Source: an uncultured Alphaproteobacteria bacterium
Lineage (GTDB): Bacteria > Pseudomonadota > Alphaproteobacteria > Rhizobiales > Hyphomicrobiaceae
Reading direction: 5' to 3'
DNA: 64,000 nt
NCBI GenBank assembly: GCA_963756175.1
Contig: CAVWMR010000004.1
Coordinates: 174,637-238,636, forward strand
Shown here: piece after piece, positions 1 through 56,335 of the stretch
Layout of the letters: each line of letters starts with the position of its first letter
Numbering within the stretch: position 1 is the first letter of the stretch
Notes under the pieces: generated by a model
Seen by the model: only the letters and a program-made list of their open reading frames with translations
What the model was told of the DNA's origin: nothing
The model's database searches: none
Made by a program: the position numbers and the translations under genes

Positions 1-60
1 CCGAGCCCCGTCTTCTCCTGACATCATCCCACAGCCCGAGCTTGAGCGGGGAACGCATCC

Positions 61-3000
61 ATGACACCGACGACAACGCAACCGCACCTGCCTGACGGTG
101 ACGACGGGGGTTGGATCGGCGTCTTCATACGCCGTCCCGTTCTGACCGTGGTGATCAACCTGCTCATCATCGTCGCCGGCTACGCGGCACTACAGGGCAT
201 CGAAATCCGCGAATTACCCGACGTCGACCGTCCGGTGGTGACCGTGCGTGCGAGTTACGAAGGCGCGACGCCGCAGACGATGGACGCGCAGATCACCGCC
301 ATCATCGAGAGTGCGGTCTCGCGCGTTCAGGGTGTCAGCAGCATCTCGTCGACCTCGTCCTACGGGTCCAGCCGTGTGACGATCGAATTTTCGAGCAGCA
401 CCAAGCTCGAATCGGCCGCAATGGATGTGCGCGATGCGGTCGCCGGCATCCGCCGCCAGCTCCCTGCGGACATGAAGGACGAGCCGACGGTCGTGAAAGC
501 GGACTCCGACGCTTCGCCGATCATGCGTCTCGTCGATCGCTTCTGAAAAGCTCTCCGAGAACGAGCTCACCGATCTCGTCAACAACGTGATCGAGGATCG
601 TCTGGCGGCCGTCGAGGGCGTCGCGTCCGCTACATCTTATGGTCTGCGCGCGCGCACGATCGAGGTGCGCATCAATCAGGTGGCGCTGGCCGGACGGGGC
701 CTTGCGCTTTCGGACCTGATGACCGCGATCGGCAAGGCGTCCATCACCGGCCCCTCAGGCGCACTGGAAAATCCGACGCAGCAACTCCTCGTAAAAGCGG
801 AAGCACCGATCCAATCGCCCGAGGAGGTTGGCGCACTGCAGCTCAACTCGACCACCCGCGTATCGGACGTCGCGTTCGTCCGCTGGGCATTTCAGGACGC
901 GACGGCGATCACGCGTCTCGACGGCAAGACGGCCGTTGGCATGGAGATCATCCGTCAAGCGCAGTCGAATACGATCGGCATCTCGGATGGCGTTCGCGCC
1001 GCGATCGAGGAGCTGCGGCGTACGCTGCCGCCCGGCGTCGCGATCTCGATCGTCTCAGACGATGCCGTCTTCATCGAGGAGGCGGTGCGCGAAGTCGTGA
1101 TCAGCCTCATCATTGCCAGCGTCATCGTCATCATCGTCATCCTTCTGTTCCTCGCCTCGATGCACGCGACGGTCGCGCCGGCGCTCGCCATTCCGATCTC
1201 GCTGATCGGCACGCTCGCGGCGATCTGGTTCGCTGGCTTCTCGCTCAACATCCTGACGTTGCTGGCGCTTGTCGTCGCCACCGGCCTCGTCGTCGACGAT
1301 GCCATCATCGTCATCGAAAACATCGCCCGCCACCGCGCGATGGGCGTCGGCCCGCGCGCCGCCGCAGTCATCGGCACCCGCGAGATCGTGTTCGCCGTCC
1401 TGGCGACGACCGCCACGCTCGCCGCCGTGTTCGTCCCGATCTCGTTCATGCCGGGCATCGTCGGCAGCCTATTCTCCGAGTTCGGATTCGTGATGGCATT
1501 CTCGGTGACGGTATCGTCGTTCGTCGCGCTGACGCTCTGTCCGATGCTCGCCGCCAAGATCGGCACCGGCAATCATACCCCGAAGGAAACACCGGGCCGG
1601 TTCGACCGCTTCGCTAATTCGCTCGCCAGCTTCTACGCGCGCACGCTCGACTGGTGTCTCAAGTTTCGCTGGATCTTCGTCGCCATCTGCCTCGCATTCG
1701 GCGGGGTCGCGGCCGCCCTATTCCAGTTCGTCCCGAGTGAAATCACACCGACCGAAGACCGCAGCGTCATCAACATCAGCCTCAGCACCCAGCAGGGCAG
1801 CAACCTCGACTACATCTCGCACAAGATCGAACCGGTTGAGGCTGCCCTCGCGGAGCTCAAGAAAAAGGGCGAAGTGACCGACGTCCTGACCACCGTCGGT
1901 CGCGGCAGCACCAATCGTGCCTTCATCGTCGCGCCGCTTGCGCACTGGAACCAACGCACCCGCAGCCAGCAGGAGATCCAGGCCGAGCTGCAAGCCAAGC
2001 TCTCGAATATCGCCGGACTATCGATTTCGACGAGGACGCCGAACAGCCTCGGCATTCGAGGTGGCGGTCAGGGCTTGCGCTTCGCCGTCACCGGGACTGA
2101 CTACGCCAAGATCGCTGACGGTGCGACGGCGCTCGCCCAGCGGCTGTCACAGACTCCCGGCTTCCGCGGCGCTCGCACCGACTTCGACACGACGCAACCG
2201 CAGCTTTCGGTCCGCATCGATCGCGAGGCGGCGACCAAGCTCGGCGTGGCGATCGAGGCCATCACGAGCCTGATCAATACGATGGTCGACTACTCGAAAG
2301 CCGCCGATCTCTTCATCGGCGAAGAGATCGTCGAGATCCAGGTCAAGCCCGGCGGCCGCCCGATCGACGATCCGTCCGACCTCAAGAACCTGTTCGTGAA
2401 AACCGGCAACGGCAGCTTCGTCGCGCTCTCGACATTCGTCAAGATGGAGGAGGTGTCGATTTCGCCGACGCTCGCCCGCGAGGGCCGCCGGCGTGCGGTG
2501 CCTGTGAGCGCGCAGCTTGCAGACGGCACCTATCTCAGCGACGCCATCACGACGCTGCGCAAGGTCGCGCCGGAAGTGCTCGGCCCGGGCATGTCGATTA
2601 CGCTGCTCGGCGAAGCCAAGACGCTGACCGAGACGACCCAGAGCACCACGTTCGTTTTCGCCGTCGCCTTTCTGATCGTGTTTCTCGTGCTCGCGGCTCA
2701 GTTCGAAAGCGTGATCAGCGCGCTGGTCATCATGGTGACGGTGCCGTTTGGCCTCGCGGCCGCGGTTTTCGCCATTCTGCTCTCGGGAGGGTCGCTGAAC
2801 GTCTACAGCCAGATCGGTCTCGTACTGCTCGTCGGCGTCATGGCCAAGAACGGCATCCTTATGGTCGAGTTCGCCGACCAGCGCCGCGACGAGGGCAGCA
2901 GCGTGCCTGATGCCATCCGCGAAGCCGCGACCACGCGATTGCGGCCGGTTATGATGACCGCCCTGGCCGCTGTCGTCGGCGCCTTCCCGCTCGTCATCGC

Positions 3001-3196
3001 CAGCGGCGCGGGTGCCGAGGCCCGGCTCGCCCTTGGCTGGGTAATCATCGGCGGGCTCGGGTTCGCGACCGTGTTCACGCTGTACCTGGTCCCCGTCGCG
3101 TACCGCATCCTGGCGCCGCTATCCAAGCCGCGGGCTCACGAGACGCAAATCCTGATCGAGGAGTTGAAAGCAGCATCGCGGCCGCCGGCGGCCTAG
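61..3196 (+). pseudogene. RND (HAE1/AcrB-family) multidrug efflux permease, 5' end near the window start. A single-base frameshift near nt 543 splits it into ORFs 61..546 and 587..3196.
   Basis: The 161-aa and 869-aa ORFs together give a colinear AcrB-like sequence. The first ends ...ASPIMRLVDRF* and the +1 frame continues SEKLSENELTDLVNNVIEDRL..., with 12 TM-like hydrophobic segments and conserved HAE1 motifs (e.g. ATGLVVDDAIIVIENI, AKNGILMVEFA). The reading frame changes between nt 520 and 590. Confidence 0.8.
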
Positions 3197-7793: not shown

Positions 7794-8988
7794 ATGTCCA
7801 ATACCAGCGCCACCTTGCCGCTCTCGCATATCCGCGTCCTCGATCTCACCGCGCACCGCGCCGGCCCGACCGCCGCACGCCAACTCGCCGATTGGGGGGC
7901 CAACGTCATCAAGATCGAGCCGCCAGCCGACAGCGACGTCGATCCCATGGGCGGCAAGCGCCACGGCTTCGATTTCCAGAACCTCCATCGCAACAAACGG
8001 TCGATGACGCTCAACCTCAAGAGCGCCGAGGGCAAAGCGATCTTCATGGCTTTGGCGAAGGACGCCGACGTCGTCGTCGAAAATTATCGCAGCGACGTGA
8101 AGCACCGTCTCGGCGTCGACTACGACAGCGTCGCGAAGGTCAACCCGCGCATCGTCTACGGCTCGATCTCCGGCTTCGGCCAGAACGGTCCCGACGCGAC
8201 GCGCCCCGGCGTCGACCAGATCGCGCAGGGCATGGGCGGACTGATGTCGATCACCGGCATTCCCGGCCAGGGACCGGTGCGGGTCGGGATACCCGATCGC
8301 AGATCTGACGTCGGGGCTCCTGCTTGCGCAGGCGATCATGCTGGCGCTGTACGAGCGCGAGCGTTCCGGCAAAGGCCAATGGGTGCACACGTCGCTGCTC
8401 GAAGCGCAAATCTTCATGCTCGACTTCCAGGCGTCGCGCTGGCTGATGAAGGGCGAGGTCGCCAAGCAGGCTGGCAACGATCATCCGACCAGCATCCCGA
8501 CCGGCGTCTTCCCGACCTCCGACGGCCACATCAATATCGCCGCATCCGGCGACAACCTGTGGAAGCGCTGCTGTGAAACGCTTGGCGCGCCGGAAATGCT
8601 GACCGACCCTGACTACGCAACCGGCGCCAAGCGCTCCGAGAACCGCAAGGCGCTCAATGAGCGGTTTGCCGCTCTGACCAGCACCAATACGTCGGCGCAT
8701 TGGATCGCGGCACTCAACAAGGCGGGCGTGCCATGCGGGCCGATCAATTCGATCGACAAGACGTTCGCCGAGCCACAGGTCAAGCACCTCGGAATCGCGC
8801 GCCGCATCCGCCACAGCAAACTCGGCGAGATCCGTGTCGTCGGCCAGCCGATCAATCTGTCGCGCTTTCCGCAGCCCGAGACGCTGGGCGCCACGCCCGA
8901 CCTCGGCGAGCACACCGGTGACGTCCTCGCCGATCTCGGCTACGGCGACGCCGACATCAAGGCACTGAAAGCCAAGGGCGTGATCTGA
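7794..8988 (+). pseudogene. CoA-transferase family III (CaiB/BaiF-type) protein, interrupted by a 1-nt insertion in a CCC run near nt 8297
   Basis: ATG at 7794 is preceded by GAGGAG. The N-terminal part (...GMGGLMSITGIPGQGPVRVGIP) continues in the +1 frame as IADLTSGLLLAQAIMLALYERERSGKGQW..., a typical family III signature. The extra C lies in ATACCCGATCGC. Confidence 0.8.
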
Positions 8989-17604: not shown

Positions 17605-18213
17605 ATGAAACTTTATGATCTCAAGGCCGGCATGAATCCGCGACGGGTCCGCATCTTCCTGGCCGAGAAGGGGGTCACGGTTCCAGTCGCCAGCATCGAT
17701 ATGATGAAGGGCGAGAACCACACGCCTGAGTTTCTGGCGCTCAATCCGCTGGGCACCATGCCTGTTCTGGAACTCGATGACGGGACGATCCTGACCGAGT
17801 CCATGGCCATCTGTCGCTACTTCGACGCGCTCCATCCGGAGCCCGATCTGTTTGGACAGGGCGCTCTCGAGCAGGCGCAAGTCGAGATGTGGAACCGGCG
17901 CGCCGAAATGGAACTTATGCGACCGCTTTCCGACCAGTTTCGCCATTTGAGCCCCTTCTGGAAGAGCCGGCTCGAACAACTTCCTGACTTCGGCGCGCAG
18001 GCACAACGCAAGGCGCGCGACACCATGGCCTGGTTCGATCGCGAACTGGCGACACGGCCCTATCTCGCGGGCTCGCGCTACACCGTCGCCGATATCACCG
18101 CTCAATGCGCACTGCTGCTCGGCAAGGGCACGGGTATGCCGATCCCCGACGAACTGAAAAATCTCGGACGATGGTGGGCGGGGGTATCGGCGCGACCGAC
18201 GGCGCGGGCATGA
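17605..18213 (+). CDS. Glutathione S-transferase
   Basis: N-terminal thioredoxin-like GST domain (MKLYDLKAGMNPRRVRIFLAEKGV...) plus a C-terminal helical domain. Confidence 0.8.
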   Translation: MKLYDLKAGMNPRRVRIFLAEKGVTVPVASIDMMKGENHTPEFLALNPLGTMPVLELDDGTILTESMAICRYFDALHPEPDLFGQGALEQAQVEMWNRRAEMELMRPLSDQFRHLSPFWKSRLEQLPDFGAQAQRKARDTMAWFDRELATRPYLAGSRYTVADITAQCALLLGKGTGMPIPDELKNLGRWWAGVSARPTARA

Positions 18214-18305: not shown

Positions 18306-19523
18306 ATGGCGCGCATCGAAGATATTCCGCAGCCGACGCGTGACGTTGTCCTCGGTCTCGCCTGTCCGGAACTGCCGGGCACGCCCTGGGTCGTGCCAAG
18401 ACCACTTTCGGAATGCCGGATCGCCATCTTGACCAGCGCTGCGCTGGTTGAGCGCGGTGCGATGCCATTTCCAGCGGGCACCGCCGAATTCCGCAAATTG
18501 CCTTCGTCGCTGGCGCCCGCCGACATGCTGATGAGCCATATCTCGATCAACTTTGATCGTTTCGGTTTTCAGCGGGACATCAACATCGCCTACCCGATCG
18601 ATCGGCTGCGTGAACTCGCGGCTGACGGCACCATCGGCTCCGTTGCCGATACGCACTACTCGGTGATGGGCTCGACGGACCCGGCGACGATGGCGGAGAC
18701 CGCGGACGGCATAGTCGGGCTTCTGAAGCAGCAGGAGGTCGACGCCGTCCTGCTGTGCCCTGTCTGACCATTCTGCACGCGCGCCGTGAGCGCGCTAGGC
18801 CATATGATCGAGACCAGGGGCGTTGCGACGGTGGTGATCGGGCTCGTGCGCCCGCACCTCGAAATCACGAAATCGCCACGCAGTCTCTGGGTACCGTTCC
18901 CACTCGGTCGCCCGCTCGGGGAGCCTGAAGATCCCGCCTTCCAGCGCCGCGTGCTGTCGGCGGCACTTGGCCTACTTGAACGCCGTGACGGCCCCGTCCT
19001 GCTGATCGATTTCCCCGACGACGCCCCGAGCATGACAGACACCCCCGGCTGGACGCCACGCGTTGACCTGCCGGCTCTGCCATCGAGCCTGCCGGACGAC
19101 GTTGCCGGTTGGGCTGCGGCGCTCTCTGCCGAACTGAAGTTGATGCACCCGCATTGGGAAGCTGCGCAACGCCGGTTCGCGCGCACGACGGTCGGCCTAT
19201 CGCAGTTGCCGCTGGAGCGGTGGGCGCCGTACGCAGCGCCGTTCCTCGCAGGCGAAATACCGGCGTCGAGCGTTGAGGGATTGTCGCCGGCGCTTCTCCT
19301 GCGCGTCGTAGCCGACGATATCAAGGCGCTCTACGGCGAGGCCGTACAGGCCGCCGGACCACAACCGTCGAGCGCACAGGTGAATTTCTGGTTCTGGAAT
19401 CGGACGCTCGCCGGACAGTTCCTGCGCGCTCTGCGCATTGCCGCGCTGACCAGCCCGCACAGCGGCTTCAACACCGTCGGCTCGCGCTTCATCGTTCCCG
19501 CGCCCTGGGTCGCGCCCGCATAA
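18306..19523 (+). CDS. Glycine/sarcosine/betaine/D-proline reductase selenoprotein-B (GrdB/PrdB) family protein; candidate selenoprotein with in-frame UGA (Sec) at 18765..18767
   Basis: ORFs 18306..18764 and 18786..19523 are in the same frame and separated only by TGA. Read-through gives ...LLCPV-U-PFCTRAVSALGHMIETRGVATVVIGLV... A SECIS-like hairpin starts 11 nt downstream. Confidence 0.5.
18779..18795 (+). promoter_or_regulatory. SECIS-like RNA hairpin (bacterial selenocysteine insertion element candidate)
   Basis: GCGCGC stem, CGUGA loop and GCGCGC stem, 17 nt in total, beginning 11 nt after the UGA. The loop contains GU. The geometry matches the minimal E. coli fdhF SECIS. Confidence 0.35.
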
Positions 19524-19636
19524 GCCGCACAGCCCCAATCTCTTGTTGCATAGACCCGCGCAATCGGCGCCGGAGTGAGTAAAAAAACGCCGCGCCGTGA
19601 AACTTCGCCGGCGGCCGCCCGTAGCTACTCCCCTGA

Positions 19637-19656
19637 CAATTCAACCCGTGTTGAAT
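19637..19656. other. Perfect 8-bp palindrome AATTCAAC-ccgt-GTTGAATT in a convergent intergenic region
   Basis: Seen directly in the sequence. Possible protein-binding site or hairpin. Confidence 0.3.
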
Positions 19657-19697
19657 TCGCGGACTTTCGGCATCCCTTGTCGCTGAAGGTCCGTGGA

Positions 19698-19730
19698 GCG
19701 GGAGCGGTGCCCCCCCGGATCCGCTCCCGC
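19698..19730. other. Strong GC hairpin: 10-bp perfect stem (GCGGGAGCGG / CCGCTCCCGC) with a 13-nt C-rich loop
   Basis: Seen directly. It lies between convergent genes with no U-tract, so it is not a canonical intrinsic terminator. Confidence 0.3.
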
Positions 19731-19807
19731 CATGACGACGGTGGGCCGGAGGCCGCGGCAGAGGGAACCGGCGTCCGGCCCCATCCATGTGGCCTGCAAG
19801 CTCGATG

Positions 19808-20390
19808 ATGGCGCAGCGTGCGCCGCTTCAGTTCAATCCCGCGATCACGGCATCGACCTTCGTCACCAGCGCGACGTTCGTGCATCGCATACTCGATCGA
19901 TGCGCGATGCCAGTCGGCGTTCATGGTCGAGCAGCCGTCCTCCGGGATGATCATCACGTAGCCCTTGTCGGCGCCGGTGCGCGCGGTGTGCTCGATGGAC
20001 ATGTTGGTCCAGGCGCCGGTCTCGATGATGATGTCGCGGCCCTCGGCGCGCAGGATCGTCTCCAGGTTCGTGCCCTCCCAGGCGCTCATGCGGGTCTTGC
20101 GGATGATGTGGTCGCCCGGCTGGGCTTCGAGCCCTGGCACGGGTTCAGCACCCCAGGTGCCTTCGACCATCGCATTGGCATCGGCGGCACCTTCGAACAG
20201 CGGCGCGTTGAGCGTCAGATCGCGACCGTCCGGTCGCCGGCGAGAACCAGACGTGAATGACCGGCACGCCGCGACGCCGGCAGTGCTCGGCAAGGCGGCG
20301 GACGTTGGCGATCGCGTTCTGCTCGCGGCAGTGGATCGGCGAGCCGGAGCTTGCAAAGGCACCACCCTCCATCACCACGTCGTTCTGCAT
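19808..20390 (-). pseudogene. Isochorismatase-family (cysteine hydrolase) protein with at least 2 frameshifts (about nt 20255 and about nt 19860)
   Basis: N-terminus MQNDVVMEGGAFASSGSPIHCREQNAIANVRRLAEHCRRRGVPVIHV...; the middle lies in another frame (...DLTLNAPLFEGAADANAMVEGTWG...SIEYAMH); the C-terminus is restored only in a third frame (NVALVTKVDAVIAGLN*). Confidence 0.7.
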
Positions 20391-22353: not shown

Positions 22354-23257
22354 TCACAGCCGGTACACCCGGCTCGCTGTTTCGTGAAAAATCGCGCGCG
22401 CCGCAGCCTCGGTGTCGCGACCGAGGCCCGGATCAAGCTCGCCGACGCCCCGCCGATGCGCGGCGATCAGGCTCGCGTAGTCCGTCCAGAGCTTTTCGAT
22501 GGGAAAGTTCGAGCCCCACAGGCAGCGCCGTGGCCCGAACACCGACACCGTCTCGCGGATCAGTCGCTCGATATGGCCTTCGTCGTTACGATGGATGAAG
22601 GTGCCGAAGCCGGAAAGCTTGGCATAGACGTTGGGTTCGTTCGCAAGGATCGCAAGATTTTCGCGCCAGTGCGCCCAGGCGGCCGGCGTCGTATCCGTCA
22701 ACATTCCCGGCATGCTGGAGCACGAAGGGGACATTCGGACACGCGCGCGCGAGTTCGGCGGCACCCGGCATCTGACCGGCAAACACCTGCAGATCGAACG
22801 ACCAACCATAGTCGGCCAATCGCGCGACGTTGGTCTGCACTGCACGCTTGAGGCACAAATCGGGATCGGCGGCGAACCGATAGAGTTCGTTCTCGTGCCA
22901 ATGAAACTGCTGGCGAACGCCGCGCACCCGCGGATAGCGCGCGAGGCGGTCGAGTGCCGGCCGGACGTCGGCGACGGTCATGTCGGCATATCCGACGATC
23001 GCGTGCGGCCAGCCGGTTTCGTGCGCCACCGTCTCGACCCAGGCAACTTCCGCTTCAGCCTTGTCGACCGGCCAGTTGGCCTGCACATAAACGGCCTTCT
23101 CCACACCCGCTGCTGCCGCTTCGCCGCGATACTCGGCCATCGGGTAGTCACGGCGGATCGCTTCGTAGGGGCCGAAGATGCGCGGCTGCATCGGACCAAC
23201 CAGCCACGCGAGATCGACCTGACGCCAGATGTGGAAGTGCGAGTCGATCGTCCTCAT
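22354..23257 (-). pseudogene. Amidohydrolase-2 family TIM-barrel hydrolase (last gene of the cox-like operon), frameshift near nt 22715
   Basis: Begins MRTIDSHFHIW... The sequence ...FVLQHAG continues in another frame as MLTDTTPAAWAHWRENLAILANEPNVYAKLSGF... Confidence 0.6.
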
Positions 23258-24352
23258 CGACGACCTCCCTTCGCGAAGTGGAGGATCTCGCGAGCGACGG
23301 CCTGCGGGCTACTGCCATTACCGAGCCGGTCGATCATCGGCGCAATTGCGCGCAGCGCTTCGGTTCGCGGCAGGAACTGCGCGTCGGCGGCGAGCGGCGT
23401 CAGCCACAAGACGGACCACGCGAGCCCGTCGAGCCGCGTCATCGCCTGCGTTAGCGCCTCGGGACCACCGCGCTCCAGTCCGTCGGAAAGAATGATCGCG
23501 AATGCGCCGCGCGCAAAGCCTGCAAAGCGCGGCACCGACAGGAACACCTGCAGCGCATCGCCGAGACGCGTGCCGCCGTCCCAGTCCGCGACGAGGCCCG
23601 ACGCGAGTTCCAACGCCTGCTCGCGATTGCGCCGCGCGAGCGCGCGCGTGACACGCGTCAGCCGCGTACCGATCGTGAAGACCTCGACCTCCTCGCCCGC
23701 ATGGACGAGCGCGTGCGCCAATCGCAGCGCCCCCGCAGTTCCGGATTTCATCGAGCCGGAGATGTCGATGAGCAGCAGCACGCGGCGTTGGCGCTGCTTT
23801 CGCGTCCGGCGCATGAGGCGGGCGACCTCGCCGTCGCGCCGCATCATGTGCCGGAATGTGCGACGCGGATCGACCGTGCGACCTTTGCCGCGCGTCATCC
23901 GGCGCGCGCGTCGACGCGGCAGCGCACTGCGGCAGGCTCCGGGCAAATGCCCGCAGCGCCGCAGCCTCGTCATCGATGAAGCGGCGCGCGAACAGCCGCT
24001 CGGCGACCGATGCATCCGATCCCGACGGTTCTTCATCTTCCGGCGCGAAAATCGGCTCGAACGCCCCGGCATCGAAGGCGTTCGGCATGTCCTCTGGTTC
24101 GCCAAGCGCCGGCGCGGTCAGGACGCGACCGAGGAAAACGTCGTCGAACAGCGCATCGAACTCCTCGCGCCGCTCCGGCGGCGGCCCAAACGTGGCGTGC
24201 GCCGCACGACGAATATCCATCAGGCTTTTCGGACCGATAAGACCGACTGCAGCGATGAACGATTGCGTCTGCTCCGGTGCCGCCAGATGCCCGGCCGCCC
24301 GCAACACCTGCGCGAAACTCAGAAATGGAGCGAGCGGGCGCGGCAACGTCAT
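23254..24352 (-). pseudogene. VWA-domain CoxE-like protein, frameshift near nt 23930
   Basis: N-terminus MTLPRPLAPFLSFAQVLRAAG...; the C-terminal VWA/MIDAS region (VLLLIDISGSM...) is in another frame. The start overlaps the MoxR stop (ATGA). Confidence 0.65.
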
Positions 24353-25230
24353 GCGGCGCTCCCCATGATCAGCCGATCGATATTCGGCGCCACATAGGTG
24401 AGGTCGTCCTGATCCTTCAATACCACGCCAATCGCGCGGGCGAACGCGCGCGGCCATGGCACGCCCTGCTCGTTGAGGATTGTCGCGGCCTCCGCCCACT
24501 CGACGGTTTCGGCGACGCCCGGCGGCTTGGCAAGCGGTTCAGCACGTAGCCGACCGACTGCCGCGACGACACGATGCGCGGTTTCGCGCGCGACCACGCT
24601 CGACCGCATCATCACGATCTCGGCTTCGAGCGCGGGATCCGGATACCCGATCCAATGATAGACGCAGCGGCGCCGCAACGCTTCGTGCAACTCGCGCGTC
24701 CGGTTCGACGTGATGACCACGACTGGCGGCTCGCTTGCGCGGATCGTGCCGCGCTCCGGAATCGAGATCGAGAAATCGGACAGGAACTCGAGCAGAAACG
24801 CCTCGAACTCGTGGTCGGAACGGTCGAGTTCGTCGATCAGCAGGATGCGATCACGCGGCGTCTGCAGCGCCAGCAGCATCGGCCGCGCCACCAGATACTC
24901 GTCGGCGTAGAGATTGACGTAGTCGGTGCCCGCTTGCCGGATCGCCAGCATCTGGCGCGGGAAATTCCACTCGTACATCGCGGTCGACGCGTCGATCCCC
25001 TCATAGCACTGGAGCCGCACCAGTTCCCGTCCCAGCACAGACGCGATCGCCTTGGCTGCCTCCGTCTTGCCGACGCCGGGCGATCCCTCTAGAAGCAGCG
25101 GTTTTCCCAATGCCAGCGCCAGATAGGCCGCCGTGGCGAGACCTTCGTCGGCAATGTACTGCGCGTCGCGCAGCGATCGCGCGAGCGGCTGCGGACCATC
25201 GATGCCAAGGATGGAGCGGCGCACGGGCAT
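24349..25230 (-). CDS. MoxR-family AAA+ ATPase (CoxD-like)
   Basis: Walker A GSPGVGKT and Walker B LLIDELDR. 293 aa, intact. Confidence 0.85.
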   Translation of the reverse strand: MPVRRSILGIDGPQPLARSLRDAQYIADEGLATAAYLALALGKPLLLEGSPGVGKTEAAKAIASVLGRELVRLQCYEGIDASTAMYEWNFPRQMLAIRQAGTDYVNLYADEYLVARPMLLALQTPRDRILLIDELDRSDHEFEAFLLEFLSDFSISIPERGTIRASEPPVVVITSNRTRELHEALRRRCVYHWIGYPDPALEAEIVMMRSSVVARETAHRVVAAVGRLRAEPLAKPPGVAETVEWAEAATILNEQGVPWPRAFARAIGVVLKDQDDLTYVAPNIDRLIMGSAA

Positions 25231-25233
25231 GGT

Positions 25234-26271
25234 CTAGCGCGCGCCTCCCGCCAGCTTGTTGCGCGGCCTGGCGCCGCCATTGGCGCGGATGCCGCGCAGG
25301 ATCTTCTCCGGCGTGATCGGCAGATCGTCGATGCGCACGCCGACCGCGTCGTAAACGGCATTCGCCACCGCCGGCAGTACCGGGTTCGCGCACATCTCGC
25401 CCGGCCCCTTGCCGCCGAACGGACCATCCGGCGCCGGGCGCTCCAGCACCGAGATGTGATGCGGAGCAATGTCGCCAGGCCCCGGCATCAGGTAATGATT
25501 GAAGTCGACAGGGCCGTGGCTGCGGTCGGGATAGTACGGCTCGGTCGTCTCCCACAGCGCGTGACTCATGCCCATCCAGGCGCCGCCGACGAGCTGCTGC
25601 TCGACGAGCTTCGGATTGAGCGCGCGGCCGAGTTCGTACGCCGATTTCATGTCGCGGACGGTGACCTCGCCGGTCTCATCGTCGACCTCTATCTCGACGA
25701 TGAGCGCGGCATGAGCGAAGCAGGACACGGGCGTCATCTCACCGGTATCCGGATCGACTTCCGAGAGCGGAATAAGGAAGATGCCGCGCCCCGAGACCGT
25801 GCGGCCCTGCTTGAACTGCGCGGCTTGGCATGCGGCCATGGTGGTGATCGACTTCGACGGCGCGCCATTGACGTGAATGTTGCCGCGTCCATCGGTGACG
25901 AGATCGGCAGCGTCGACTTCCAACTCTTCGGCGGCGGCTTCGAGCATCACGGCGCGCGCTTCCTGTGCCGCCTGGATGACCGCATTGCCGACGCGGTGCG
26001 TGCCGCGCGACGCGAACGAGCCCATGCAGTGCGGGCCGGTATCGCTGTCAGCAGTATCGACATAGACGTCGGCGACGGGAATTCCGAGCGTCTCGGCCGC
26101 GATCTGGCGTGTGACGGACTTCATGCCCTGGCCGAGATCGATCGACGACAGCGCGACGGTGAACTTGCCGTCGGGATTCGAATGCACGAGCGCCTGTGAC
26201 GGGTCGCCTCCGAGGTTCATGCCGATCGGATAGTTGATTGCCGCAAAGCCGCGACCGCGGTGCAGGCCCAT
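25234..26271 (-). CDS. Xanthine dehydrogenase-family molybdopterin subunit, C-terminal half (separate ORF)
   Basis: Begins MGLHRGRGFAAINYPIGMN... (the GxLRGxGxA region) and continues ...AAETLGIPVADVYVDTADSDTGPHCMGSFASRGT. The SD GAGGAGG lies 5 nt upstream. Its ATG overlaps the upstream stop as TGATG. Confidence 0.75.
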   Translation of the reverse strand: MGLHRGRGFAAINYPIGMNLGGDPSQALVHSNPDGKFTVALSSIDLGQGMKSVTRQIAAETLGIPVADVYVDTADSDTGPHCMGSFASRGTHRVGNAVIQAAQEARAVMLEAAAEELEVDAADLVTDGRGNIHVNGAPSKSITTMAACQAAQFKQGRTVSGRGIFLIPLSEVDPDTGEMTPVSCFAHAALIVEIEVDDETGEVTVRDMKSAYELGRALNPKLVEQQLVGGAWMGMSHALWETTEPYYPDRSHGPVDFNHYLMPGPGDIAPHHISVLERPAPDGPFGGKGPGEMCANPVLPAVANAVYDAVGVRIDDLPITPEKILRGIRANGGARPRNKLAGGAR

Positions 26272-27950
26272 CAGCGCCTCCTCAAGCCGGAAATTGATGA
26301 GAACCGCATGGCGCCTTGGCGCGGGCGATCGGTCGGAGTGTTCGGCGCTGGCGGCTGAGGTGGTGTCGACGTCGACTGCGGCGCGGCAGGAGACGGAGCA
26401 GGCGCAGCGGGCCGAACGGGCGTGCGAGCCGCACTTGCCGCGGCCGGCATCGAATACCCCGGCATCGATTGGGCCGGCGCAGAATTGCCGCCCTTGCGCG
26501 CGTAGCCGCCGGTATCGATACCGGTGACCGTCCCGTGCTGATCGAGCGCTGTATGCGCCGGCAGCCGCGCCCGCTCACCGCCACCATCGCGCAGCGATGA
26601 GGCCGCACGCGATGCCGGCTGCAGCGCGATGCCCGCCTTCTCAGCCACGACCTGGCAGCACTCGATCAGCGCGCAATTCTTGGCCTCGCGGCGATGAGCC
26701 TTCATGTCGCCGTCGCGGTACGAGTTGAGGATGCGCAGATCGATCGGATTCATGCCGACCGCCTCCGCCACCTTGTCCATGTGCGCTTCGATCGCGAAAT
26801 CGACTCCGGTGATACCGAACCCACGCATGGCCGTCGCCGGCGTCCGGTTGGTGTAGACGCAGTAGACGTCGGCGTAGACGTTCGGGATCGTGTAGGGGCC
26901 GGGCAGATGACCGACGCCCTTGATGATGGCGTAGGATGACAACCGCGTGTAGGCGCCGCTGTCGAAGTAGCCGGTGAATTTGCGCGCGAGGATGCGGCCG
27001 TCTCGCGCGACGCCGTCCTTGATGTACCAGCGCTCCGCCCCGCGCGGCGCGCCGACCTGCATCTCTTCCTCGCGGTCCCAGGCGAACTTGCACGGCCGGC
27101 CGGTCAGTACCGCACCGAGGATCGCGATCGGCTCGTGCAGGCTGTCGACCTTGCCGCCGAAGCCACCGCCCACTGTGCCGCCGACAAAATGCAGCCGGTT
27201 CGACGGCATTGTCAGCATCTTCGCCGCCGTGCCGAGTGAGAAGAACAGTGCTTGCGTCGAGGTGTAGCAGACGAAGCGTTCGTTGACCTCGGGCGCGGCG
27301 ATGGCACCGCAGGTCTCGATCGGCGCCTGCTCGATCGGCGACATCTGATAGCGGCCCTCGACGATATGGTCGGCGCGCGCGAACGCCGCCTCGACATCGC
27401 CGTAGCGCAGTTTCTGATGGTCGTACTTGCCGTGATAGATGAACTTGTTGGTGGGATAGACCTCACAGACGACCGGCGCGCCCGGCTTGATCGCCTCTTC
27501 GACGTCGAGCACATGCGGACGCACATCCCAGTCGACGCGAACCCGCGCCACGGCCGCACGCGCCTGCGCTTCCGTTTCAGCTATAACGGCGGCGACAGGT
27601 TCACCCTTGTAGGCGACCTTGCTTTCGGCGAGCAGAGGCTCGTCGTCGATGCCGAAATCGAGAAGGCTCAGCAGCGTGTTGAGGTTGCGCGGCACATCGC
27701 GACCGACCAGCACGCGCACGACGCCGGGCATTTTCTCCGCTTCGGCCGTATCGACACGGCGGATGCGGGCATGGTGGTGCGGACTGCGAACACAGCGAAT
27801 GTGAAGCAGGCCGTCGAACAGGTGGTCGTCGAAGTACGGAGAACGCCCCGTCACATGGCCGAGAATGTCCTGGCGCCGCGTGGGCTTGCCGATTTCATTC
27901 AGGTTGTCGTCGCGTTCGTTGGCGAAGAATTCCTTGCGAAATTCCATCAT
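26271..27950 (-). CDS. Xanthine dehydrogenase-family molybdopterin subunit, N-terminal half, ending in a Pro/Ala/Ser/Thr-rich tail of about 100 aa
   Basis: Begins MMEFRKEFFANERDDNLNEIGKPTRRQDILGHVTGR... The active-site loop reads AMRGFGITG, not the CoxL form I/II motifs. The low-complexity tail is PAAPAPSPAAPQSTSTPPQPPAPNTP. Confidence 0.75.
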   Translation of the reverse strand: MMEFRKEFFANERDDNLNEIGKPTRRQDILGHVTGRSPYFDDHLFDGLLHIRCVRSPHHHARIRRVDTAEAEKMPGVVRVLVGRDVPRNLNTLLSLLDFGIDDEPLLAESKVAYKGEPVAAVIAETEAQARAAVARVRVDWDVRPHVLDVEEAIKPGAPVVCEVYPTNKFIYHGKYDHQKLRYGDVEAAFARADHIVEGRYQMSPIEQAPIETCGAIAAPEVNERFVCYTSTQALFFSLGTAAKMLTMPSNRLHFVGGTVGGGFGGKVDSLHEPIAILGAVLTGRPCKFAWDREEEMQVGAPRGAERWYIKDGVARDGRILARKFTGYFDSGAYTRLSSYAIIKGVGHLPGPYTIPNVYADVYCVYTNRTPATAMRGFGITGVDFAIEAHMDKVAEAVGMNPIDLRILNSYRDGDMKAHRREAKNCALIECCQVVAEKAGIALQPASRAASSLRDGGGERARLPAHTALDQHGTVTGIDTGGYARKGGNSAPAQSMPGYSMPAAASAARTPVRPAAPAPSPAAPQSTSTPPQPPAPNTPTDRPRQGAMRFSSISGLRRR

Positions 27951-28423
27951 GTCCGCGCCCTCCCCCTCGCCGCCGCCAGCACGGCCTCAATGATCGGCTC
28001 GTAGCCCGTACAGCGGCAGATATTGCCCGAGATCGCCTCGACCACATCCTCGCGCGATGGCGATGGATTTCGATCGAGCAGCGCCTTTGCCGAGACCAGC
28101 ATCCCCGGCGTGCAGTAGCCGCACTGAGCGGCGAAATTCTCCATGAACGATTCCTGCAGTGCGTGCAGCGTGGCGCCGGTTGCGAGTCCTGCGGCTGTAT
28201 CGACACGGCGGCCCGCGACACTCTCCGCGAGCGTCAGGCAGGCGAGATGCGTCACGCCGTCGATCGAAACCGTGCACGCGCCACACGTGCCCTGGCCACA
28301 GCCATATTTCGGGCTGAGGTCACCGACGCCGCGGCGCAGGAATTCCAACAGGTTCTGGCCGGGCTCGGCGAACGATGCCCGCTCAGATCCGTTGAGAGTG
28401 AAAACGATGGGTGTCTTTGCCAT
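27947..28423 (-). CDS. (2Fe-2S)-binding subunit (CoxS-like)
   Basis: CGQGTCGACTV and CGYC...CRCTGY clusters. The start overlaps the coxM-like stop. Confidence 0.8.
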   Translation of the reverse strand: MAKTPIVFTLNGSERASFAEPGQNLLEFLRRGVGDLSPKYGCGQGTCGACTVSIDGVTHLACLTLAESVAGRRVDTAAGLATGATLHALQESFMENFAAQCGYCTPGMLVSAKALLDRNPSPSREDVVEAISGNICRCTGYEPIIEAVLAAARGRART

Positions 28424-32955: not shown

Positions 32956-33799
32956 CTACTGGCCGCCTCGGCCCTGGCGTGCGATGCGCTTGAACATGCG
33001 CGTTTGTTCGGTCAGGGCGATTTCGGTCGGCAGGCGCTCCATCGACGACGCGCCGTAGAAGCCATGGCAATTGGATGTGTTGTTCAGGATGAATTCGGCG
33101 TCCGCGGGCATGGCGACCGGGCCGCCATGGACCAGCACGATCACCTCGGGGTTGACCTTGAGCGCCGCTTCCGCCCAGGCCTCGACGAGCGCCGGGCAAT
33201 CCGCAAGCTTGAGCGACGTCTCGGCTCCGATGCTGCCGCCCGTCGTGAGGCCCAGATGACAGACGATGATGTCGGCGCCCGCTTTCGCCATCGCCGTGGC
33301 ATCGTCCGCGTTGAAGACGTAGGGCGTGGTCAGCATGTCCTTGGCGCGCGCGGTCGCGATCATGTCGACTTCGAGCCCGTAGGACATGCCGGTCTCTTCC
33401 AGATTGGCGCGGAAGATGCCGTCGATGAGACCGACGGTCGGGAAATTCTGGACGCCGGAAAAGCCGATGCGCTTCAGGTCATCGAGGAACACGGACATGT
33501 TGCGGAACGGATCGGTGCCGTTGACGCCGGCGAGCACTGGCGTGTGGCGGACGACGGGCAGCACTTCAGCCGCCATCTCGACGACGATCTGGTTGGCGTC
33601 GCCGTACGGCATCAAGCCCCGCGAGCGAGCCGCGCCCGGCCATGCGGTAGCGGCCGGAGTTGTAGATCACGATGAGATCGATGCCGCCGGCTTCCTCGCA
33701 TTTGGCCGATAGCCCCGTGCCGGCGCCACCGCCGATGATCGGCACGCCCGCCGCCATCATGGCGCGGAATTTTTCCAGGATCTTCTGACGCGGTATCAT
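32956..33799 (-). pseudogene. PEP-hydrolase-like / TIM-barrel partner protein (Tm-1 C-terminal-domain-like), frameshift near nt 33600
   Basis: [62 protein letters not shown], then continues in another frame as [21 protein letters not shown]... Confidence 0.55.
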
Positions 33800-35028
33800 C
33801 GGGCCCTTTCTCCGCGGGATCGCGCGCGGCCGTCGCCGTGCAGGTTGCGGAATGCCGCGACAAGGGCCGCTGCGAACTCCGGTGAATTGATGTGGTGAGG
33901 CAAGCTGATCAACTGGCGCGACGCGGTCTGGCGCACGGTTGCGACAAGCGAAGCGAAAAGGGCCGAGCGCGCCGCGAGATCATGGAAAGGCTTGTCCCGG
34001 CGCATCGAGCGCCGAAACGCCGCCCTCGGGCAGGAAGAAGCGCACCTGGCCTTCCATCCGGTTGAGCCGCTCGCCGATCCAACGGCCCATCCGGGTGCAT
34101 TCCTCCGGCGTCGTGCGCATCAGCGTGATCTGAGGATTGTGCCGATAGAGCAGCCGCCCGGCGTAGCGCTCGGGCACCGTCTCCGGCGCAGCGAAGTTGA
34201 CCATGTCGAGCGCGCCGACCGAGCCGATGTACGGCATGCGCGTGCGAATGATCGCGCCGAAACGATCCTCGGTCGCGGGAAACACGCCACCCATCAGGAG
34301 ATCGCAGACCTCGGTCGTGCTGATGTCGATGACGCCGACGAGCTTGCCGGCATCGACGAGCGCTTCCATCGCCTGTCCGCCGATCCCGGTCGCGTGGAAC
34401 ACGAGGCAGTCATGGGTCGAGCCGAGCTGCTTGGCGACCTGCTGCACGCAGGGCGTCGTGACGCCGAACATGGTGAGGCCGATTGCCGGCTTCGACGCGC
34501 GGTCGCGGCTTGGCGGTCTGGCGCGCGGCGACCATGCCGATCATGGCCTGCGCGGCGTTGCCGAGCACCTCCTCGGTAATCGCGTTGAGGCCCTGCACGT
34601 CGGCGACCGACGGCAGCAGCATGATGTCGGAGGGCGCCGACATATTTGCTGACCTCGCCGGATGCGACGGTCGAGACGATGAGCTTGGGGATGCCGACGG
34701 GAAGCGTTCGCATCGCCGGCGCCACCATCGCCGTGCCGCCCGATCCGCCCGCCGAAAGCATGCCGGCAATGCCGCTCTGGCGCGGCATCCAGCGGCGGAA
34801 CGCCTCCGTCATGCCGGCAACCGACTGGCCGCGGTCGCCGGTGAAGACGCCGGCGGCGCCGCGCGGATGGAACGCCGCGATCTGATGGGCGGGAATTTCC
34901 GCGCCGGAATGGCCGCCGGACGTGGAGAGATCGACCATCCGCACCGGCAGACCCGCCGCCCGGATCAGGTCGCGCATGTAGCGCAGCTCATCGCCCTTGG
35001 TGTCGAGTGTTCCGGCGACGAGCACCAC
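33796..35028 (-). pseudogene. UPF0261-family (Tm-1-like ATP-binding) protein with at least 3 frameshifts (about nt 34640, 34480 and 33985)
   Basis: MVLVAGTLDTKGDELRYMRDLIRAAGLPV... The middle and C-terminal parts (...[16 protein letters not shown]..., ...[23 protein letters not shown]) are in other frames. Confidence 0.55.
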
Positions 35029-36808: not shown

Positions 36809-37864
36809 GGTCAGCGCCCCCCACCGAGCAGGGGATCGCGGTTCTGCGTCGCGACGCGCTTTGTACTTTTCCCAGAGGCCGAGCACGCCATCCGGCGAGA
36901 AGAACACGACTGCGAGGAAGCCGAGTCCGATGAGCAAGCTTGAAGCGCTCTCCGGACATGCCGAACGCGTGCAGAATATCGGACGAGAATACGCTGAGGA
37001 TCGCATAGATGATCGCGCCGATGAACGGGCCGATCGGGCGCTCGAGGCCGCCGACGACGGCGATCACCAGAATGTCGATGACTTGCGGAATGCCGGCGGT
37101 GCCCGGCACGACCTGGGCATTCTGCCAGACGAGCAGGATGCCGCCGACGGCGGCGATCACGCTCGCGAACGCAGTAGGCCGCGATGCGATGGGCAGTGAC
37201 GGAGAAGCCGAGGGCGCTCATGCGCCGCGGGATTGTCGCGCACGCCCTGCAGCGCGAGTCCGAATGGCGTGCGCGCCATCCACACGACCGCCCCATAGGA
37301 CAGCGCCGCACAGCCGAGCGTCAGATAGTAGAACGGTACCGACTGGCGCCAGTCGATGCCGAACAGGCGCGGCGGGATGACGTTGTTGAAGCCGGTGTAG
37401 CCGTTGAAGATCCCGTAGTTCTGGCGGGTGAAGTAGAAGAACGCCGCCGCGATCGCGAGCGTGATCATGATCGTGTAGATGCCCTCGGTGCGAACCGCGA
37501 GGGTGCCGACCAGCGTGCCGAACAGGGTCGCGATCAGGATCGCGATCGGGATGTGCAGCCACCACGGCCAGCCGAGGCTGATGTGCGTCACGCCGCTGGT
37601 GCCGAGGATCGCGACGACATAGCCGGCGAGCGCGCCGACCGTCATCTGGATCAGGCTCACCATGCCGCCATAGCCGGCCAGGACCATCAGCGACAGCGCG
37701 ATCATGCCGAGGATGAAGCTCCAGCCGAAGATCTGGAACAGCACGAAATTGCTGGCGAATGCCGGCATCACCAGCAGGACCAGGCCGATCACCCAGACCG
37801 GCGGCGGTATGCGCTCCAGCAGGATCAGCTTTCCCGGTGCGGTGGTGGGCATGACATCGGCCAT
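36805..37864 (-). pseudogene. ABC transporter permease (LivM-like) with 2-3 frameshifts
   Basis: MADVMPTTAPGKLILLERIPPPVWVIGLVLLVM... with at least 8 TM segments. The RDNPRRMSALGF motif and the C-terminus are in other frames. Confidence 0.6.
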
Positions 37865-37865
37865 G

Positions 37866-38890
37866 TCAGCGCTGCGCCCCCAGCAGGCCCTGCGGCCGGA
37901 AGGCCAAGACGACCACCATGATCAGGAAGGTGAAGACGACCGAATAGGTCGGCGTGTAGACAAGGCCGATCTGCTCGGCGAGGCCGATGATGACGGCGCC
38001 GAGCGCCGCGCCCGGGATCGAGCCCATCCCGCCGACGATGACGACCACGAGCGAGGCCAGCAGGAAGCGCGTGTCCTCGCCCGGCGACAGCGACTGGAAC
38101 GTGCCGCCGATGATGCCGGCCATGCCGGCCATGCCCGCGCCGAAGGCGAACACCGCCAGGAACACGAACTGGATGCGCACGCCCGTCGCCGCGAGGATGT
38201 CGCGATCGTCGACGCCGGCGCGGATCAGCATGCCGAGCCGCGTGCGGTTGAGCACGAGCCACATCGCGACGCCGATCACGATCGCGGCGACCAGGATCGC
38301 GATCCGCACCAGCGGATAGGTCAGGTACACCGCTTCGCCGTTCGAGCGAAGGGAACTGATGAGCGGCAGCGTCATCGGGCCACTCAGCCAGCTTCGGCGA
38401 GAGCACCTGATAGCTCTCGCCGCCCCAGAACCACAGCATCAGGTCGGCCAGCACGATCGAGATGCCGATCGTGACCAGCGTCTGGCGCAGTTCCTCTCCC
38501 TCCATGCGGCGGAACACCTGATGCTGCAGCAGCAGGCCGAGCGCGCCGACGACGATGAAGACGACGGGAAACGCGAGGAGCCAGTAGCCGGTGACCTCGA
38601 CGACGCCATAGCCGATGTAGCCGCCGAGCAAGATAGAGCGAGCCGTGCGCGAGGTTGACGTTGCGCATCAGGCCGAAGATCAGCGTGAAGCCGGACGCGA
38701 CAAGGAAATAGAGCGCACCGAGCGTGATGCCGGACAGGATCGCGTTCAGAAAGACCCGCTTGCGGCCCATGGCTTGCTCGAGGCCGGGCGGCCACGGCGC
38801 AAGGATCAGCCAAGCGAGACCGACGACCAGCACAACGACAATGAGCGTCCAGATCGGATGGCGCGTACTCAGGTTCTGCAAAGTGCCCAT
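37866..38890 (-). pseudogene. ABC transporter permease (LivH-like) with 2 frameshifts (about nt 38640 and 38375)
   Basis: MGTLQNLSTRHPIWTLIVVVLVVGLAWL...NLAHGSLYL | LGGYIGYGVVEVTGYWLLAFPVV... | ...MTLPLISSLRSNGEAVYLTYPLVRIAIL... Confidence 0.6.
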
Positions 38891-43719: not shown

Positions 43720-44727
43720 GTGCGCTCAAGCACAGTGCTCATGCTCGGCGGCGCCACCATTTGCGCCCTGATCGCGACAAGCCTCACGGCCAGCCTTTTG
43801 AACACGGATCGTCCCAAGCCGGCGCCGGTTGCAGCACCGATTGCCCCGCCCGCGCCTGAGATCCGAAAGATCGTTGTCGCGGCGCGTCCATTGCCTTTCG
43901 GGACGCTGTTGACGTCCGATTCCTTGAAGGAGATTCCCTGGCCGAACGACCTCGACCTGCCAGGCACATTCACGGCCGCAGCCAAGCTCGCCCTCGAGCA
44001 GCGGACCGTGTTGTCTGCGATCGGCGAGAATGAGCCGATCCTTCAATCGCGCCTGAGCGCTCCTGGACAATCCGCAACCTTCTCGGCTCTGATCCGCAAT
44101 GGCCTCACGGCTGTCACCATCCGCGTCGACGACGTGATGGGCGTGGCGGGCCTCGTGCAGCCCGAGGATCATGTCAACGTACTGCTCACGCAGAACCATG
44201 GCGCCGCAGGCGGTCCGAAGGGCGACGCCTACAGCGCAACGCTGCTGCAAAACGTCCGCGTGCTAGCGGTGGACCAGACGATCGATCGCACGCGCCAGAT
44301 TAAGCCGGCCAGAGCGGTGACTCTTGAGGTGGACCTCGAGCAAGCGCAAAAACTGACACTCGCCGCGAGCGTCGGGCAATTATCGCTCGCACTCCGCAAG
44401 GCGGGATCCACTGCACGGGCCGATATCAAACGCAGCGAACTGTCCGATCTGCCGCGTCAACCCCTAGTCCCTCAAGCCGTCGTCGAGACGGCCAAGAGCG
44501 AGACACCTCCGGCGGTCGTCGTAACGCGGGGCACGGATCGCACGATTTACGACGTGCTCGTGGACGGCAGCACGGACGTGCATCGCGTTGCAGCCGTCCG
44601 ACGCGAACAGGCCGCGCCGCTGCCCTCAGGTCGCGCACTACCAGTGCTCGTAACGCGGTCGGAACGCGGCACATCCGACAAACCCGCCAGTGAAGACGAT
44701 ACGCAGGAGGCTGTGGTTCCCCGTTGA
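43720..44727 (+). CDS. cpaB: Flp pilus assembly protein CpaB (RcpC)
   Basis: GTG start after GAGGGGG. N-terminal TM, an SAF-like domain and a Pro/Ala-rich linker. Confidence 0.75.
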   Translation: MRSSTVLMLGGATICALIATSLTASLLNTDRPKPAPVAAPIAPPAPEIRKIVVAARPLPFGTLLTSDSLKEIPWPNDLDLPGTFTAAAKLALEQRTVLSAIGENEPILQSRLSAPGQSATFSALIRNGLTAVTIRVDDVMGVAGLVQPEDHVNVLLTQNHGAAGGPKGDAYSATLLQNVRVLAVDQTIDRTRQIKPARAVTLEVDLEQAQKLTLAASVGQLSLALRKAGSTARADIKRSELSDLPRQPLVPQAVVETAKSETPPAVVVTRGTDRTIYDVLVDGSTDVHRVAAVRREQAAPLPSGRALPVLVTRSERGTSDKPASEDDTQEAVVPR

Positions 44728-46228: not shown

Positions 46229-46229
46229 C

Positions 46230-46565
46230 ATGCGCTTGATCTTCCGCCCTCATCGCTCAGCACTTCTTGCCGGAATCGCAGCTCTCTCACTCGGTGGATG
46301 TGCAGAGAGCGACCTCCACCAGTATCTCGGTCACACCGATACGCTCACGGTCGGCGCTGGCAACGCGCAAGCCGCCAACAGGGCGATCCATGAAGTGGAT
46401 CATTGGCCAGAGACGAGCCGCAGGACCCAGATCGACCTCGATGGCCGTCGCGCGGCGCTCGCCGTCAAGCGCTATCAGAGAAACGAGAGCCTCGAACCGA
46501 AGGGCCTCACCAAGCGCGACATCAGCATTTCCGGGTCGGAGACCGGAGCCGCCGTCAAGCAATAG
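46230..46565 (+). CDS. Small lipoprotein in the CpaD position of the tad locus
   Basis: MRLIFRPHRSALLAGIAALSLGGCAES..., with lipobox LGGC. Only 111 aa. Confidence 0.4.
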   Translation: MRLIFRPHRSALLAGIAALSLGGCAESDLHQYLGHTDTLTVGAGNAQAANRAIHEVDHWPETSRRTQIDLDGRRAALAVKRYQRNESLEPKGLTKRDISISGSETGAAVKQ

Positions 46566-46603
46566 CGAGGACGCGCGTCACAAGCGATTGGAAGTATCGA
46601 ATC

Positions 46604-47791: not shown

Positions 47792-47806
47792 CCGAGGCTC
47801 GAACGG

Positions 47807-51080: not shown

Positions 51081-51106
51081 TCACGGCGTTCTCAGGGAAA
51101 CCGATC

Positions 51107-51634: not shown

Positions 51635-51648
51635 GCGTCAGTCCCAGC

Positions 51649-56275: not shown

Positions 56276-56335
56276 GTGACCCTCCTAAGACATCGTCGCC
56301 ATGATCAACAGCGACATCGACGGTGATACGCTTGC

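Follow-up and report, generated by a model that had tools for sequence, protein, structure and literature searches.

A conserved in-frame UGA and hairpin mark a predicted stand-alone PrdB/GrdB-like selenoprotein of soil and freshwater Alphaproteobacteria

The DNA analyzed here is a stretch of 64,000 nucleotides, referred to throughout as the window, from an uncultured alphaproteobacterium of the family Hyphomicrobiaceae (GenBank assembly GCA_963756175.1, contig CAVWMR010000004.1, positions 174,637 to 238,636 of the forward strand). Its subject is a candidate selenoprotein gene at positions 18306-19523. Translation of 18306-19526 (+) yields a single reading frame whose sole internal stop is the TGA at 18765-18767, in the context ...DAVLLCPV*PFCTRAVSALGHMIETRG... 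An earlier note on this DNA had described two same-frame open reading frames (ORFs) parted by this codon alone, and the translation bears this out, with the ORFs at 18306..18767 and 18786..19523 sharing one frame. The second ORF only seems to start at GTG 18786; that start is a product of ORF calling and marks no gene. The features of the locus, including the codon predicted to be read as selenocysteine (Sec) and a hairpin resembling a bacterial selenocysteine insertion sequence (SECIS), are as follows.

18306..19523, + strand: complete gene of the predicted selenoprotein; ATG at 18306, predicted Sec-UGA at codon 154, TAA at 19521-19523, 405 codons.
18387..18980, + strand: PrdB/GrdB-like catalytic core with a Rossmann-like alpha/beta fold, containing the predicted Sec (residues 28-225).
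18756..18758, + strand: Cys151, the upstream cysteine of a 'C-x-x-U' pattern; no feature of the family, with Cys in about 13 of 82 copies.
18765..18767, + strand: UGA predicted to be read as Sec (residue 154), in a UGA-C context; TGA in 162/162 copies, Cys in relatives.
18774..18776, + strand: Cys157, by analogy the resolving cysteine of U-x-x-C; invariant in 79/79 genes (TGC in 72, TGT in 7).
18777..18796, + strand: frozen nucleotide block (ACGCGCGCCGUGAGCGCGCU) that coincides with the hairpin and includes the third positions of codons 158-163.
18779..18795, + strand: predicted bacterial SECIS hairpin, GCGCGC-CGUGA-GCGCGC; 18779-18784 paired with 18790-18795 (6 bp, G-C), loop at 18785-18789.
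18981..19520, + strand: family-specific C-terminal domain of about 180 residues, mostly helical (residues 226-405).

The interrupting codon is conserved without exception among the homologs that we collected. A first set of 80 loci fetched from GTDB genomes contained 82 gene copies, and a second set of 80 metagenomic contigs from a more distant clade brought the total to 162 copies. TGA occupies the column in 82/82 copies from GTDB genomes and in 162/162 once the distant metagenomic clade is included, and tblastn alignments in 80 genomes ran on through the TGA, covering query residues 1-405. A read error, which the earlier note had asked to have checked, does not account for a codon that recurs in 162 independent copies. 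Carriers in GTDB include metagenome-assembled genomes (MAGs) of Hyphomicrobiaceae, which are the closest (86% amino acid identity), as well as Acetobacteraceae, Rhodopila, Reyranella, Vineibacter terrae, Desertibaculum, Acidisphaera and some Betaproteobacteria. Their habitats are mainly soil, freshwater and peat, and the orders and families represented are mainly Hyphomicrobiales, Acetobacteraceae and Reyranellaceae. Of the 120 best homologs in a protein search, more than 115 comprise the C-terminal part alone, about 239 amino acids (55-96% identity), and begin just past the TGA, a pattern that arises because gene callers stop at this codon. Duplications were seen twice in these sets: a Comamonadaceae MAG contig carries two TGA-plus-hairpin segments about 2.9 kb apart (L018:5948 and L018:8832), and a marine metagenome contig (L158) carries two paralogs with TGA in both.

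Both sides of the TGA evolve as coding sequence. Each half is under purifying selection, with ratios of nonsynonymous to synonymous substitution rates (dN/dS) of 0.07-0.47, and of 0.13-0.47 downstream of the TGA; dS between homologous genes is 0.8-1.7, so that synonymous sites are saturated. When 79 genes are aligned by codon, Pro155 never changes although all four of its codons occur, Cys157 is invariant with two codons, and Leu164 and His166 are likewise conserved with varying synonymous codons. Pro155 and Cys157 lie 5' of the first possible restart codon, GTG 18786. As codons 155-157 keep their amino acids and vary synonymously, they are translated, and the UGA must therefore be read through; the codon alignment thus establishes read-through. 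Elsewhere in the window TGA is an ordinary stop, indeed the commonest one, ending 20/33 other Pfam-supported genes, among them the glutathione S-transferase (GST) gene immediately upstream. This rules out reassignment of the UGA codon, and the recoding is therefore site-specific.

Relatives that lack the TGA have Cys in its column. The full-length homologs P0004 and P0007 (404-405 amino acids, about 54% identical) both contain CPVCPACTRAV here, and both show the stretch LLCPVCPACTRAVSALGH; the column codon is TGC in P0004 and TGT in P0007. These Cys-containing homologs are single contiguous proteins, which confirms that the two ORFs are halves of one protein, and the homologous column of the family alignment holds either Cys or Sec, as the earlier note had proposed to check. 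An exhaustive search with P0004 retrieved 1,864 cluster representatives. The top 150 of these are mostly fragments that start just after the Sec/Cys column, and about 17 among the top 150 are full-length relatives (30-40% identity) with the pattern P[VT]CPxC[TS]R, in which the second Cys is invariant. Cys157 is also invariant in an alignment of distant full-length homologs. The motif of the gene itself is U-P-F-C (UPFCTRA, without the third Cys) and that of close homologs is U-P-[FLVI]-C, whereas the column of Cys151 holds C, S, T, L, A or V. Judging by these alignments, the family-wide motif is U/C-x-x-C. Of the C-x-x-U-x-x-C motif first put forward for this gene, the U-x-x-C part is therefore conserved and the upstream cysteine is not. 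U-x-x-C is the Sec motif of both GrdB and PrdB (PMC13188914, PMC9312934).

The second element that carries the argument is the hairpin. It is 17 nt long and begins 11 nt past the A of the UGA. Folding paired 18779-18795 in the manner the earlier note had indicated (-10.3 kcal/mol), with minimum free energies (MFE) ranging from -10.3 to -12.4 kcal/mol. The bacterial SECIS (bSECIS) model (PMC13188914) describes an apical loop of 3-9 nt, an upper stem of 4-16 bp, a distance of 16-37 nt from UGA to loop, a G within the first two loop positions (usually G followed by G or U) and an MFE of at most -7.5 kcal/mol. The hairpin agrees with the model on every point, having a 5-nt loop (CGUGA), a 6-bp stem, G-U at loop positions 2-3 and a spacing of 17 nt. 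It had also been likened to the minimal SECIS of E. coli fdhF (Liu et al. 1998 per PMC8659212), and the likeness holds for the 17-nt size of the stem-loop, its start 11 nt past the UGA and the G-U in the apical loop. It does not extend to the stem, which here consists of six uninterrupted G-C pairs and has no counterpart of the bulged U17 of fdhF; in addition, the loop is of 5 nt and the G-U stands at positions 22-23 instead of 23-24. An Rfam search over the window gave no match at gathering thresholds, and a permissive scan of 18700-18880 gave only chance matches.

In a single sequence, such a hairpin is only suggestive. Within the window, 3.7% of TGA trinucleotides have a similar hairpin of 6 bp or more behind them, and for 0.7% the hairpin is all GC. 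Chance is ruled out because both the TGA (162/162) and the nucleotides of the hairpin are conserved across genomes. In the 79 genes, codons 158-163 (ACG CGC GCC GTG AGC GCG) have a relative codon entropy of 0.00-0.09 compared with a gene-wide mean of 0.85, and the flanking codons 155, 164 and 166 vary freely. This contrast indicates that the hairpin is under selection at the nucleotide level. In a set of 32 distinct hairpin variants, pairing holds in 90.6% of cells, and double-sided changes occur in 3/6 pairs; the covariation score was reached by 1/500 shuffles, and all slid registers scored far worse. The clearest instance is the variant in L161 and L162, ACGAACGC-AGGUG-GCGUUC, which has two stem pairs changed on both sides, with the encoded amino acids changed too.

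Taken together, the comparative evidence is decisive in our view, and we consider 18306-19523 to be a single working gene that encodes a selenoprotein about 405 residues long, with Sec predicted at the internal TGA (probability roughly 0.9). By the established bacterial pathway, the hairpin at 18779-18795 of the mRNA would bind SelB carrying Sec-tRNA(Sec) when the ribosome meets the UGA at codon 154. Selenocysteine would then be inserted in place of termination, and 251 further codons would be translated up to the TAA. In the finished protein, if the B proteins of D-proline and glycine reductases are a guide, the selenol may act as nucleophile or reductant, and Cys157 may resolve the intermediate as a selenenyl-sulfide that a cellular thiol system would re-reduce.

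Several observations weigh against this reading, and the first of them concern the hairpin. The near-invariance of the hairpin leaves little covariation; the few compensatory changes occur in distant members, and the double changes come from very few lineages. The fold energy is unexceptional for DNA of 64% GC (z = -0.18 versus shuffles, 41 nt). The two closest Cys-form homologs (L081:10472 with TGT and L082:1477 with TGC) keep identical hairpin nucleotides, ACGCGCGCCGTGAGCGCGCT. In these genes the hairpin has the look of a relic SECIS that has outlasted a recent switch from Sec to Cys, and the Cys forms therefore provide no independent control for the tie between hairpin and UGA. Others concern the machinery. 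ARAGORN found no tRNA-Sec in the window or in 80 genome loci, tblastn with E. coli SelA, SelB and SelD as queries gave no match in the window and 162 loci (1.74 Mb), Pfam scans of the window showed no Sel protein, and none of selA, selB, selD or tRNA-Sec was found within 10 kb of any homolog. The Sec machinery is thus not linked to the gene in the window or at the homolog loci. Finally, the proposed chemistry is drawn solely by analogy with GrdB and PrdB, and we infer, rather than observe, that the residue inserted is Sec and that SelB takes part. With regard to the machinery, Sec-utilizing organisms listed by Peng et al. 2016 (PMC5029168 Table S2) include Reyranella massiliensis with 10 selenoproteins, Hyphomicrobium spp. 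and Roseomonas sp. Many Rhizobiales and Rhodospirillales have an fdoGHI-selABCD cluster, in which the tRNA-Sec gene is sometimes hidden inside selB (PMC8124441).

Three other explanations were weighed. According to the one that survives best, the UGA would be read as Trp or Cys by a near-cognate or suppressor tRNA, with the hairpin stimulating read-through independently of SelB. UGA-C is a weak terminator context, which would suit read-through by a standard amino acid, as would the missing Sec machinery in the window and homolog loci and the retention of the hairpin by Cys forms. However, the hairpin fits the SelB-dependent bSECIS model in size, spacing and loop G-U, homologs without UGA have Cys at the column, GrdB and PrdB have Sec at the equivalent U-x-x-C, and the lineages carrying the gene include documented users of Sec. 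Moreover, we know of no bacterial precedent for a conserved hairpin that makes a UGA in a catalytic Cys column be read through without Sec. We therefore leave this explanation a small chance.

The gene could also be split, with a 153-residue N-terminal protein followed by a C-terminal one of about 240 residues that starts at GTG 18786 or ATG 18804, and with the hairpin regulating or coupling re-initiation. Codon 161, GTG, is invariant and lies in the hairpin loop, gene callers annotate the C-terminal part separately everywhere, and the lack of nearby Sec machinery in the window and at the homolog loci fits a split gene as well. The chance of such a split is nevertheless very small. Codons 155-157 are translated, as judged by their conserved amino acids and synonymous variation, ATG 18804 (codon 167) is not conserved (Met in 54/79), and no purine-rich Shine-Dalgarno sequence precedes GTG 18786. 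Cys-form homologs are contiguous polypeptides with the same sequence through the region, and a split would fall between a beta-strand and the helix after it, inside a single domain that is modelled with confidence, and would take Sec away from its partner Cys. That the TGA is a sequencing error or a nonsense mutation in a pseudogene can be dismissed as having a negligible chance: the window does contain a frameshift-split AcrB, Mo-hydroxylase subunit, permease and CoA-transferase, as an error-prone assembly or gene decay would produce, but here the TGA is found in 162/162 independent copies that span many genera and samples, purifying selection acts on either half (dN/dS 0.07-0.47), and what interrupts the gene is a stop codon in frame, located in the catalytic Cys/Sec column, and not an indel.

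Returning to the gene as a single predicted selenoprotein, its family can be placed with profile searches. The Pfam family GRDB (PF07355) is matched with 32.9 bits (threshold 22, E = 5.5e-08), residues 34-151 corresponding to positions 223-345 of the 347-position profile, and homologs carry precomputed PF07355 matches. The PrdB model TIGR04483 scores 106.8 bits, below its cut-off of 300, with residues 28-225 aligned to positions 20-219 of 238 and thus spanning the TGA. TIGR01918, the subfamily of glycine/betaine/sarcosine/D-proline reductase selenoprotein B, scores 47.4 bits (cut-off 65.45), and the GrdB model TIGR01917 scores 39.2 bits (cut-off 602.2) with only profile positions 281-421 matched. 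These profile matches confirm membership of the GrdB/PrdB superfamily. The assignment to the glycine/sarcosine/betaine/D-proline reductase protein B family, made in the earlier note, accordingly stands at the superfamily level, where Pfam GRDB is passed, and falls short of every NCBIfam GrdB and PrdB cut-off. The Pfam match in the N-terminal ORF (18306-18764) ends two residues before Sec, as if the model had been built from Sec-truncated sequences. The C-terminal ORF taken alone (18768-19520) matches no Pfam family. For these two reasons, Sec forms end up labelled 'hypothetical protein'.

The architecture combines this core with a domain that appears specific to the family. A structure model was made for the Cys homolog P0004 (54% identical), which stands in for the read-through product. 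In the model, the pair corresponding to Sec154 and Cys157 sits at the start of a helix, after a beta-strand, and helices spanning residues 267-394 are predicted with confidence. The invariant residues of the C-terminal domain include W362, F363, W364, D337 and D338. This domain (residues 226-405) found no match in Pfam, among PDB sequences or in the fold search; for the model, Foldseek against PDB gave no match, and no relative was found among PDB sequences.

Comparison with characterized B proteins brings out both kinship and distance. The protein is homologous to PrdB of Clostridium sticklandii and C. difficile over nearly the whole PrdB length and shares Sec in U-x-x-C; unlike PrdB, it has about 180 extra C-terminal residues, no prd neighbours and aerobic alphaproteobacterial hosts in place of Stickland-fermenting clostridia. 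With GrdB, GrdF and GrdH it shares the Sec-bearing C-terminal half, over which Pfam GRDB is passed, and again Sec in U-x-x-C. In contrast to GrdB (about 430 amino acids), it lacks the GrdB N-terminal half, has U-x-x-C where U-x-x-C-x-x-C is described, and has no grd neighbours. PrdA, GrdE, GrdA, GrdC and PrdC were all absent from the window and from the vicinity of the homologs, and prdD, prdE, prdF and grdD were absent from the window and not conserved near the 81 loci compared. As the gene stands alone, without the pyruvoyl partner PrdA or GrdE, its product is probably not a subunit of D-proline or glycine reductase. It is probably a separate reductase with similar selenol and thiol chemistry, to judge from its better-known relatives.

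The genomic neighbourhood offers little further guidance. Across the 81 loci no neighbour is conserved, the best non-self cluster (16/81) being a branched-chain amino-acid ATP-binding cassette (ABC) transporter. Other recurrent neighbours are short-chain dehydrogenases/reductases (SDRs), major facilitator superfamily (MFS) transporters, glucose-methanol-choline (GMC) oxidoreductases and generic dehydrogenases. The upstream GST gene pointed out in the earlier note is real (17605-18213); as a functional partner it was rejected, not being a conserved neighbour among homolog loci. Directly downstream lies an isochorismatase-family gene (19625-20365, - strand), which is not a conserved neighbour either. 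Isochorismatase-like proteins are predicted to accompany the orphan-SelD selenium trait (PMC9312934); the adjacency seen here is probably a coincidence. Long antisense ORFs overlap the gene (18656-19324, - strand) and similar ones occur in 75 loci. They are not genes, and their recurrence simply reflects a conserved, GC-rich sense strand.

Beyond this locus, the other disrupted genes of the window are frameshifts, as had been claimed, with AcrB, a Mo-hydroxylase subunit, a permease and a CoA-transferase split across frames. AcrB (46-3196) is split at about 497-546, the large subunit of the Mo-hydroxylase (25234-27986) at about 26271-26574 and the BPD_transp_2 permease (37157-38438) at about 37866-37921. 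The CoA-transferase III starts at profile position 153, and PEP_hydrolase and UPF0261 are partial (regions 8245-8988 and 32956-34540). These broken genes suggest indel errors in the assembly or gene decay. Further content includes a DAO-FAO_M-GCV_T protein resembling dimethylglycine/sarcosine dehydrogenases (53828-56284, - strand), which is 35 kb from the selenoprotein gene with no linkage shown, and a 588-residue ORF (22631-24397, + strand) with no Pfam match at E <= 0.01. A Tad/Flp-type pilus cluster (44654-53226, + strand) encodes a BON-domain secretin, a T2SSE ATPase and a VWA-domain protein of TadE/G-like type.

Selenoproteins of this Pfam family have a history in environmental surveys. 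In the Sargasso Sea, 'Proline reductase PrdB' (pfam07355, U-x-x-C) ranked third in abundance among selenoprotein families, represented by 42 Sec genes (Zhang, Fomenko & Gladyshev 2005, PMC1088965), and PrdB was among the top selenoprotein families of the Global Ocean Sampling (GOS) data, with 235 Sec and 110 Cys forms (Zhang & Gladyshev 2008, PMC2398784). These reports mean that a PF07355 selenoprotein in aerobic, non-clostridial bacteria was already known. The idea that such a protein would be notable in an aerobic alphaproteobacterium was therefore overstated, given the abundance of PrdB selenoproteins in oxic ocean metagenomes (PMC1088965, PMC2398784). The marine-survey PrdB and the present family have pfam07355, U-x-x-C, Sec and Cys forms, oxic non-clostridial settings and misannotation as truncated ORFs in common. 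They differ in that the surveys filed the protein as 'proline reductase' and addressed neither the C-terminal domain nor the missing PrdA partner, and in that the carriers collected here come mainly from soil, freshwater and peat. A full-length Cys member of the present family occurs in the marine roseobacter Cognatishimia, and, going by the survey descriptions, the two are probably the same broad family. A literature search for 'PrdB-like' selenoproteins found no paper. In databases, the full-length Cys members are named 'glycine/sarcosine/betaine reductase selenoprotein B family protein' (RefSeq) or 'D-proline reductase (dithiol) PrdB' (IMG), and Sec forms appear as unnamed fragments or as a 'hypothetical protein' of 239 amino acids, with the N-terminal piece unannotated. 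What is newly described here is a family that stands alone, has an extra C-terminal domain, fails the equivalog tests, nearly always has the Sec form, bears a predicted minimal SECIS that is strikingly invariant, and is widespread in soil and freshwater Alphaproteobacteria.

Our broader reading is that of a free-standing selenoenzyme with its own chemistry and not a proline or glycine reductase subunit, built from a PrdB-like core and a novel helical domain without a pyruvoyl partner, kept near-exclusively in the Sec form by aerobic Alphaproteobacteria of soil and freshwater, and equipped with a 20-nt SECIS that is unusually invariant across orders. This composite is put forward tentatively, as a proposal that we rate slightly below even. 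The finding overturns nothing, as oxic selenoproteins of the Pfam family have been known from metagenomes since 2005. The composite reading, if true, would place the family among the most widespread uncharacterised selenoproteins of aerobic bacteria, missing from standard annotations. Treating the gene as one selenoprotein would correct hundreds of database records. A SECIS common to several bacterial orders would suggest that gene and SECIS have spread horizontally as a unit. Cultured carriers such as Vineibacter terrae, Reyranella sp., Desertibaculum subflavum and Acidisphaera sp. make experiments feasible. For the organisms, the prediction is that carriers in Hyphomicrobiales, Acetobacteraceae and Reyranellaceae would have a working Sec system and a need for selenium beyond formate dehydrogenase; for the family, a PrdB/GrdB-like core would be acting in aerobes without any known partner.

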